A stretch of 64,000 bases of DNA. Source: Paraspadella gotoi. Its lineage: Eukaryota; Animalia; Chaetognatha. Below, one piece after another: positions 1-7,120 of the stretch. A program made the translations under genes and the position numbers. The stretch spans positions 23,720,192 through 23,784,191 of the forward strand of contig CM119263.1 of the NCBI GenBank assembly GCA_051294375.1, given 5' to 3'. The notes beneath the pieces are model-generated. The model was not told the origin of the DNA, searched no databases, and saw only the letters and a list, made by a program, of their open reading frames with translations. The first letter of the stretch is position 1. Each line of letters starts with the position of its first letter.

Positions 1-1342
1 CCGCCGCCGCGCACCGAAGAGGGTGCCAGCAATAGCGACGTTTGATAGCGGTGCGCCGCGGCTGCGTGGTGCGCGTGATGCGCGGCTGCTTGGAATCTAC
101 TAGTCGAAGGGTAGTACGGATCGTGATGCATGGATCTGTGTGCCGAAGAATAATGGCCACCCTGAGTGTGAGTCGTGGAACCCGTGGTCGGCATTCCGGC
201 CAGAGCGGGATAATGACTCCAAGGATCCGAGGCGGATGACTGATGGTGAAGTCTTTGATGGGCCGCCGCCGCCAAGTGGTGTGCGGCCGCAGCCGCGTGA
301 TAAGGATCGGCGCTGGCGAAAAGATCGTGCGAGGCGACTGCAGCGGCCGCCGCTGCTGCCGCGCCGTTGTTATGATGGTGATGGGGACGGGGGAAAAGAT
401 AGTCATCGTTATGGTGCGATGAGTATTGTGCGTGGGCGTTCCAGAAGGAAGCCGGGAAATTCCTCGACGCCATTGGACTGATCTCTCGCCACTGAAGCAG
501 AGACGATGATTTGTCGCCACCGAGCGACGGTGAGAAGCTGGCGTGGTTCAACGACTTTGTAAAATGCTCGTCTACTTTGTGACCCACGTCTCCGCTGAAA
601 GATGGGGATGTTTGTCATCAATTCTCTAACATTTTTTCGCTGGCTTAGTTAAATAAAATTAGTTAAAAACCTGAAGTAAAATAACAAAACGCAGTTTCCC
701 GAAATGTAATGCGTGTCCAGGATCGGTTCAGTTTCCGCCTCTTTCATGAGCGCCAACGCCCCCGTTTCTTGCGATTGCGTTCGGGAGATGGATGGGCTTG
801 GACTGGGATCTGTCTTCGTGCTCGTCCCTTTAGTGAAAAATCATTGAATGTCTGTATACCGGGATGATGGAATTTAATCTTATATTGTAAACGCTTTACC
901 TTGCGAATTATCTCGCTTCATCGACCCAAAAGAACCAGAACCCATCCGCGGGGTCGTAGGTCGATATTGCGATGCGACAGAAGAAGAGGATAGATGAGTC
1001 GCTGCTCCTGCGGGGAGAGGGGGTGAATGGGGGAGTAAGGAATACTTCGAATGGAGGACGGAGTTTCTCAGCATAAAAATTCAAGAATTTATTATATCTC
1101 TCACCTGGTGACACATAGCCGGCGCTGCCGCTTCCGCTAGTGCCGGCGGGGCTACACCCTGGAGTTGTGAATACCCCGTGATAGGAAGCATCGCCTCCAT
1201 GCGCCTCGTGCACGTTCATGCGTTGATTGTAGTCGGCGCACCCAGCGGAGCGCGAATGAATTGACGAGTCTACGAACTTTCCGACGTAATCTGCGGGACT
1301 TTGGTGCAAGGAGGGAAGACCCGCTGGCAAGCAAGAGAGCAT
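1..1342 (-). CDS. VGLL: Vestigial-like (VGLL1-3/vg family) TEAD cofactor with Tondu (TDU) domain; 3' end runs off the window
   Basis: Manual splicing of exons 1342-1105, 1007-900, 827-671 and 594-<1 (GT-AG introns, phases consistent) gives MLSCL...LDTHYISGNCVLLFYFS|GDVGHKVDEHFTKSLN...PMASRNFPASFWN...His/Ala-rich...DPWSHY...YQTSLLLAPS. This matches the VGLL2/3 and vg signatures ([37 protein letters not shown]). The start codon is the least certain part. Confidence 0.93.
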
Positions 1343-5297: not shown

Positions 5298-7120
5298 GCT
5301 AAAGCCTTCCTACGTCTCTCAAGTCTATCCGGGACTGGATACGAAGCCAGCCTTGGGCCAGTTCAGTCAGTCCGACGCTCTCTCACCAGGTGAGTGACTC
5401 GAATTACTGCCTCCGCGCCGCGTTAAAAATAACAACGACCCCTACCAACACGAAGCTTAAAAGCTGTTTGTTTTTGATGCACCTATGGTGTGAGTAAACC
5501 GACTATCCTGTTATCATAGGAAGCATCAAGAGAAATCTCGCGGGAGGTCTTCCTCGATTCTTAATTCGTTTTCTCTGCTCAAATAAAAACTTTGCGAAGA
5601 AGTCGATTTCCCCTTTTGGTTATTTAATTTTTTTTATTTCGATTTTATATGAATCGCTTCCAAAAAAAATTTATATCTTGTCCTTGCTAGAGTTTGACGA
5701 GGATGGATAATTTTAATATATTATTATTATGAAATTGGTACAACCAATATAAAAATTATCCATTCATTTAATAAATATATTATATATTATATATTATCAC
5801 ATCAGTTACTAAATTTTTTTCCGCCATTTTCGTAGAGACATCTTGACAAATATGTTAAAAATATATTATATATATCTCTGCTCTCTCTCTCTCTCTCTTC
5901 TCTCTCTCTCTCTCTCTCCTCTCTCTCTCTTCTCTCATACTATTCAGGATCGGCGCCCGCGTGGCACGGGAGAACGATCGGCACGGAGAAGCTTCGTCTC
6001 CTCGAGTTCTCCGCCTTTCTCGAACAACAAAGAGACGCCGAATCTTACAACAAGCATCTTTTCGTGCACATCACGAGCCAAGCCTCCTATTCGGACCCTC
6101 AGCTTGAAGCCGTCGACATCAGACAGGTGACGAGGATAATGCCTGTGTCAGTTATCTGTACTGACAACAACGATCACGAGGTTAATTACAAAATCTTTGC
6201 CAACAGATTTACGACAAATTTCCCGAGAAGAAAGGAGGATTGAAGGAGCTATTTGACAAAGGTAAGCCGTGAAAATGGTTGAGGTAAAAAAATGAGGAAA
6301 AAAATGAAAGAAAAGAAGAGACTCCTCTCTTAGAATGAGTAAAAAGGGAAAAAAGAGAAGAGAATAGGAGAGAAAGTAAAAAAGGAGAAAATATTCCTCT
6401 CTCTCTCTTATTCCCCGATTTGTCTTTGAAAGTCAACACCCCCTCCCTTCCAGGACCTCAAAATGCATTCTACCTGGTGAAGTTTTGGGCGGACTTGAAC
6501 TTCGCTGATCCCGACGAGACCGGGACCTTTTTTGGAGTAACGTCCCAATACGAGGGACCCTCGCCCATGACCATTCAATGCTCGACCAAAGTTTGCTCCT
6601 TCAGCAAACAAGTTGTGGAAAAAGTTGAGGTGATTATTCTCGGCAATCGAGGACGGAATTTTAAAAATTATTATTATTATTATTATTATTCTTTCTCCAG
6701 ACGGAAACCGCTCGGTTTGAAAATGGACGATACGTATACCGTATTCACAGGTGAAATTTCCTGACCCGACTTCGAAATGTTCATATTTTTTTAAACTTAA
6801 ACTATCATTGATAATTATTTTTATTTTACGCTACAGAAGTCCGATGTGCGAGTACATGATTAATTTCATCCACAAATTGAAACATCTTCCTGAAAAGTAC
6901 ATGATGAATTCGGTCTTGGAAAATTTTACCATCTTGCAGGTTTGTAACTATTCGTCTCCTTAGATTTTGGTAAACTGAAATACCACATTTCCCTTTTATT
7001 TTCTAGGTGGTTACCAACCGAGATACCCAAGAAACTCTCCTTTGTGTGGCCTATGTGTTTGAGGTTTCCACCTCTGAGCACGGAGCGCAACATCACATAT
7101 ATAGACTTATTAAAGATTGA
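5298..7120 (+). CDS. TEAD: TEAD/scalloped transcription factor, C-terminal YAP/VGLL-binding domain (5'-partial; TEA domain not in window)
   Basis: Exons 5298-5389, 5948-6126, 6207-6261, 6454-6629, 6701-6750, 6837-6939 and 7007-7120 splice in frame to LKPSYV...[26 protein letters not shown]...[16 protein letters not shown]...FWADLN...[17 protein letters not shown]...[48 protein letters not shown]...[12 protein letters not shown], very close to the vertebrate TEAD C-terminus. Confidence 0.98.

Follow-up and report, generated by a model that had tools for sequence, protein, structure and literature searches.

In the chaetognath Paraspadella gotoi, a gene encoding a Vestigial-like (VGLL) cofactor lies on the minus strand beside plus-strand exons of the gene for TEAD, the transcription factor which this cofactor family binds. 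Both genes are real, nesting of the first within an intron of the second is likely, and the arrangement is probably lineage-restricted. The window analysed is a 64 kb stretch (64,000 nt) of contig CM119263.1, with the two genes at its left end.

The two genes

The minus-strand gene was modelled as four coding exons:

1105 to 1342, minus strand: VGLL coding exon 1, with the ATG at 1342; the protein opens with MLSCL, comparable to Bemisia vg (P0213), which starts with MSC
900 to 1007, minus strand: VGLL exon 2 of the spliced gene model
671 to 827, minus strand: VGLL exon 3 (acceptor at 827 or 809), with the beta-strand half of the Tondu motif at its end and a weak donor, CAG/GTTTTT
594 to beyond position 1, minus strand: VGLL exon 4, encoding the VDEHF helix, a 25-residue linker, the Omega-loop MASRNFPASFW and a His/Ala-rich tail, and continuing past the left edge of the window

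The introns of 97, 72 (90 with the acceptor at 809) and 76 nt are all GT-AG, and the spliced model forms a single open frame of 365 codons which is unfinished at the left edge of the window. Alignment to the Ptychodera VGLL2 protein (P0216) stops at residue 245 of 303 and, therefore, about 60 residues should be encoded further to the left. Because an intron splits the Tondu motif, the last-exon open reading frame (ORF) alone matches the Pfam family Vg_Tdu (PF07545) under the cut-off (E 1.4e-5; 25.3 bits, cut-off 27), and the Omega-loop family TEADIR3 (PF15238) is also found below its cut-off (E 7e-4), as is the case in all five full relatives. A profile of six other VGLL proteins, from which the window's own sequence was left out, matches the spliced model at E 2.8e-28, with no gaps across the motif. 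With the last exon as query, a word-based search gave no match among longer proteins, and a full HMMER search recovered six proteins, including the named vg/VGLL2 of Bemisia, Ptychodera and Amblyomma. The original prediction of a spliced VGLL gene with an intact Tondu motif, running on the minus strand from 1342 past the window's edge, is thus borne out by the gene model, Pfam and the profile.

The Tondu beta-strand and the VxxHF helix, which together characterize the Vg/VGLL1-3 cofactors, are both present, and the Omega-loop, which sets the Vg/VGLL2 type and had been overlooked when the gene was first recognized, carries all of the Met, Arg, Phe, Ser, Phe and Trp positions described for the loop formed by residues 324-334 of Vg (PMC7566471). 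Because of this match, the gene is, judged by its sequence, of the Vg/VGLL2 type.

Two further features were observed near the VGLL start. A perfect TEAD-type site, ACATTCCA, lies at 1350-1357 on the minus strand, a few bases 5' of the ATG; and, speculatively, a minus-strand splice from a donor at 3726 to an acceptor at 1565 would create a 76-codon upstream ORF, the TAA of which overlaps the VGLL ATG (TAATG).

On the plus strand, the best database match to the window TEAD is P0001, a 476-residue protein of a close relative, not of P. gotoi itself, which contains both the TEA domain and the YAP-binding domain (YBD) and derives from a 3463-nt contig. The exons are as follows:

5298 to 5389, plus strand: TEAD linker exon, corresponding to P0001 residues 222-252, with an internal phase-2 acceptor
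5948 to 6126, plus strand: YBD exon, by homology to P0001 and other TEADs
6207 to 6261, plus strand: YBD exon, by homology to P0001
6454 to 6629, plus strand: YBD exon, by Pfam and homology
6701 to 6750, plus strand: YBD exon, by homology to P0001
6837 to 6939, plus strand: YBD exon, by Pfam and homology
7007 to 7120, plus strand: last coding exon, ending in a TGA stop, with AATAAA at 8537, 8996, 9103 and 9161

These seven exons, separated by GT-AG introns of 558, 80, 192, 71, 86 and 67 nt, encode 255 residues, of which 239 (94%) are identical to P0001 residues 222-476 in a gap-free alignment that begins exactly at 5298. The YBD was identified by Pfam (PF17725) on three exon ORFs and by matches to 43 TEAD sequences in the PDB, so that the predicted cofactor-binding-domain exons from 5298 onwards stand. 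At 6590-6720 (plus strand), the P. gotoi protein and P0001 share SFSKQ and ETETA, where seven other aligned TEADs have SFGKQ and ETEY. An exact 20-nt duplicate occurs at 5729-5748, in a TEAD intron, and at 8908-8927, 3' of the TEAD stop codon.

The missing TEA half and the case for nesting

The TEA domain, present in the 94%-identical P0001, is absent from the window. A motif scan in all six frames of the 64 kb found no TEA exons, and tblastn of four full-length TEADs against both strands left P0001 residues 1-221 without a match (best E 0.98). The same residues were also compared with the plus strand of 1-5297 in eight pieces, with boundaries following the exon layout of human TEAD1. Six of the eight, including the three TEA pieces (scores 25-29, against self scores of 104-210), stayed within the range of 100 shuffles; as a positive control, three small known TEAD exons scored 86-128 of a possible 90-158. 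Thus, the claim that 1343-5297 holds no TEA exons withstood the motif scan, tblastn and shuffled piecewise alignment, and no host exon was detected between VGLL and the exon at 5298 by the latter two methods, which micro-exons of a few residues could escape. The remaining two pieces overlap, and the shorter one (P0001 residues 195-212) aligns to 4379-4432 on the plus strand with 9 of 18 residues identical, exceeding all 100 shuffles. As a TEAD exon this segment was rejected: there is an in-frame stop at 4337-4339, 40 nt upstream, with no acceptor after it, and the conserved upstream half of the exon is absent. The likeness may be due to chance or to a decayed remnant; we read it as chance, though it is unexplained.

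The exon at 5298 opens, as originally stated, at an internal phase-2 acceptor. Its pyrimidine tract is joint best on the plus strand of 1343-5300, a phase-2 acceptor precedes [VI]KP at the matching position in 8 of the 17 other genomic TEAD loci examined, and the codon for P0001 residue 221, a Glu, can be completed by the lone G with which the exon begins. As far as such comparison goes, 5298 is the usual internal acceptor of TEAD genes, which places the upstream TEAD exons beyond the VGLL gene. Given that P0001 is colinear from 5298, that its residues 1-221 are absent from the window and that the acceptor is conserved, the missing exons probably lie to the left of the window, and VGLL would then sit antisense within a TEAD intron of at least 5.3 kb:

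1 to 5297, plus strand: predicted phase-2 TEAD intron holding VGLL, at least 5297 nt long, with its donor placed left of the window

The host exons downstream of VGLL are seen directly and those upstream of it we infer; to this extent, the nesting originally proposed is strongly, if indirectly, supported. Two counterpoints concern size: none of the other six TEAD introns in the window exceeds 558 nt, which makes the predicted intron at least nine times as long as any of them, and where 15 other loci have the corresponding gap, it measures 228-2048 nt.

The interval between the two genes contains two elements of possible regulatory interest:

3400 to 4068, no strand assigned: GC island (GC content 0.56-0.61) containing a CT repeat of 48 nt (3735-3782) and two donors that face outward, one on the minus strand at 3726 and the other on the plus strand at 4068; speculatively, a candidate two-way promoter
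4019 to 4068, plus strand: candidate alternative TEAD first exon, from an ATG at 4019 to AAG/GTGAGA, phase 2 and in frame with the exon at 5298; or, alternatively, a 30-nt cassette at 4039-4068

The donor at 4068, if spliced to 5298, could give a TEA-less TEAD resembling the TEAD4-S and TEAD4-deltaN isoforms. Other scans of this region were negative: Rfam detected no family in 1-10000, and among 12 ORFs from 1265-5255 no Pfam match had an E below 0.02. TEAD sites occur in 1343-5297 at 0.76 per kb, compared with 0.58 per kb in the rest of the window; this is no enrichment and, therefore, no sign of autoregulation. T-over-A skew was discarded as a clue to the transcribed strand: the positive values over 1.4-5.3 kb recur at 10-11 kb, where the gene is on the minus strand.

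The same elements bear on a different reading of the locus, that the two genes are head-to-head neighbours, with the plus-strand gene being a TEA-less, YBD-only TEAD (a partial duplicate or truncated copy) transcribed from the GC island and the full-length TEAD located elsewhere. The donor at 4068 is the only plus-strand AG/GTRAG donor in 1343-5297 and combines phase 2 with the in-frame ATG at 4019, a coincidence reproduced in 5.2% of 500 shuffles (22.8% with a looser donor), but this pattern was spotted post hoc and the ATG has a pyrimidine at -3. While the minus-strand donor at 3726 points the opposite way and TEA-less TEAD4 isoforms exist in humans (PMC4909989; PMC10888684), 5298 is a conserved internal acceptor, and the 94% gap-free identity to the full-length P0001 extends through the linker exon; divergence from that relative at the level of LRRC34 is probably far larger (identity to the nearest LRRC34, possibly from another species than P0001, is 72%). 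We, therefore, consider head-to-head neighbours improbable. More improbable still is that the assembly was wrongly joined somewhere from 1.4 to 5.3 kb, for instance at the 48-nt CT repeat, and so put VGLL in front of a cut TEAD: the window does contain three N gaps and 14 CT/GA runs of at least 20 nt, but there is no N in 1-32267, the GC-rich island continues uninterrupted on both sides of the repeat, 1-12000 contains no long duplication, and a random join would be very unlikely to choose the gene's own binding partner. Antisense nesting of VGLL within TEAD, the likely reading, is followed below.

Comparison with other animals

The original prediction also raised an ancestral TEAD-VGLL linkage, a part of the proposal which found no support. 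A VGLL profile covering the Tondu motif and Omega-loop had no match in the best 80 of 148 confirmed TEAD loci from metagenome contigs, 343 kb in all (best E 5.7), whereas it finds the window's own exon at E 2.3e-16. Fifteen of these 80 loci (14 distinct) are genomic and span the intron in question, and one (L068) spans the whole TEAD gene. In Ptychodera flava, TEAD is located on a scaffold of 53,098,162 nt and VGLL2 on another of 44,297,253 nt. The TEAD and VGLL genes are also unlinked in Drosophila and human. Because no VGLL was found in the TEAD loci compared and the genes are separate in all three of these animals, the arrangement is probably lineage-restricted rather than ancient.

For the nesting, or a close linkage, to be an ancient bilaterian trait that was kept here, it must have been broken up in the other lineages. 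Such a history is functionally plausible, and the short contigs are compatible with a looser linkage at tens of kb; nevertheless, with no linked pair found in this small sample (80 loci and Ptychodera), with the intron spanned in 14 distinct loci and with the Ptychodera, fly and human genes apart, we regard an ancient origin as very unlikely.

LRRC34, next door at 11756-13096 (minus strand), is encoded by a single unbroken ORF of about 445 codons, although the genes around it are rich in introns; in other animals, LRRC34 has many introns. Its identity falls from 72% with the nearest protein to 52-53% with Lingula, Ptychodera and Saccoglossus. In an LRRC34 tree with no ecdysozoan, flatworm or xenacoelomorph among its rows, the window sequence is placed on a long branch among spiralians (96/94), and an alternative tree uniting the named spiralians without it is not rejected (p-AU 0.35). 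Two tandem MORN-repeat genes follow at 18000-23600 (minus strand), presumably RSPH10B and RSPH1, one of which, at 22868-23584, is a single ORF; together with LRRC34, they form a row of probable ciliary genes next to TEAD. Elsewhere in the window, 36696-41009 (plus strand) is occupied by long ORFs of low complexity, with an exon for a THAP domain at 37550-37825 (E 5e-5), and there are weak Pfam matches to a SET domain at 15900-16900 (plus strand, E 0.006) and to OATP at 26800-29700 (plus strand, E 0.001).

Possible regulatory consequences

In the cholinergic locus, VAChT lies inside ChAT, so that there too a functionally coupled gene occupies an intron of its pathway partner; that locus differs, however, in that both genes are on the same strand, the arrangement is deeply conserved and its products, an enzyme and a transporter, are not a transcription factor with a cofactor. 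A positional parallel is provided by ceh-10 and polq-1 of Caenorhabditis elegans, where a developmental regulator resides in an intron of an opposite-strand host and the elements of the nested gene can drive a short host transcript, and opposite-nested pairs in general number in the hundreds per animal genome (PMC12274878). In the C. elegans pair, the functions of host and guest are unrelated, and the short transcript was judged a by-product (PMC12274878), whereas in P. gotoi the guest belongs to a family whose members bind the protein made by the host, and any short host form would retain the domain that they bind. Searches of the full-text literature outside subscription journals listed neither nesting of VGLL in TEAD nor linkage between the two genes, and the main text of PMC3514665, as distinct from its supplement, which possibly lists such pairs, does not mention tead, vgll, vestigial or scalloped.

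At the protein level, the P. gotoi pair resembles the Vg/Sd and VGLL2/TEAD complexes (PMC7566471; PDB 6y20, 5z2q) in the cofactor's beta-strand, VxxHF helix and Omega-loop and in the conserved YBD, although the genes for those partners are separate in the genomes mentioned above. The VGLL linker of 25 residues is like that of VGLL2 (27) and unlike that of fly Vg (12). For the candidate first exon at 4019-4068, the model is TEAD4-S and TEAD4-deltaN, TEA-less isoforms which keep the YBD and one of which arises from an intronic promoter; the abstracts on that promoter describe no VGLL gene there (PMC4909989; PMC10888684), and the P. gotoi isoform is a sequence prediction only.

Under antisense nesting, full-length TEAD transcription would run through the entire VGLL gene, which would have its own promoter within the TEAD intron, at or above 1343 and possibly in the GC-rich island (3.4-4.05 kb). 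Judging from its family, the VGLL protein would use beta-strand, helix and Omega-loop to bind the host-encoded YBD and would compete with YAP for it (PMC7566471). The likeliest regulatory effect would be that VGLL enhancers in the TEAD intron couple both genes in VGLL-positive cells, as for ceh-10 and polq-1, and such coupling might be either selected for or a tolerated accident. A more elaborate possibility, which we hold to be unlikely, is a self-limiting one-locus module, wherein a bidirectional VGLL promoter yields both VGLL and, through splicing of 4019-4068 to 5298, a TEA-less TEAD, produced in VGLL-positive cells alone as a decoy for VGLL and YAP, with full-length TEAD still transcribed through the locus from further upstream.

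The VGLL and TEAD proteins are ordinary members of their families, and gene nesting is common; the unusual point is that the gene for a transcription factor would carry that for its own binding partner. Since TEAD output depends on the cofactor at the YBD, the shared locus would offer a natural test of whether position sets cofactor-to-factor ratios, for which shared enhancers, interference and a short decoy isoform are possible routes. If confined to one lineage, the locus would make a good case study but not establish a general principle; if phylum-wide, it would represent a new conserved regulatory block.
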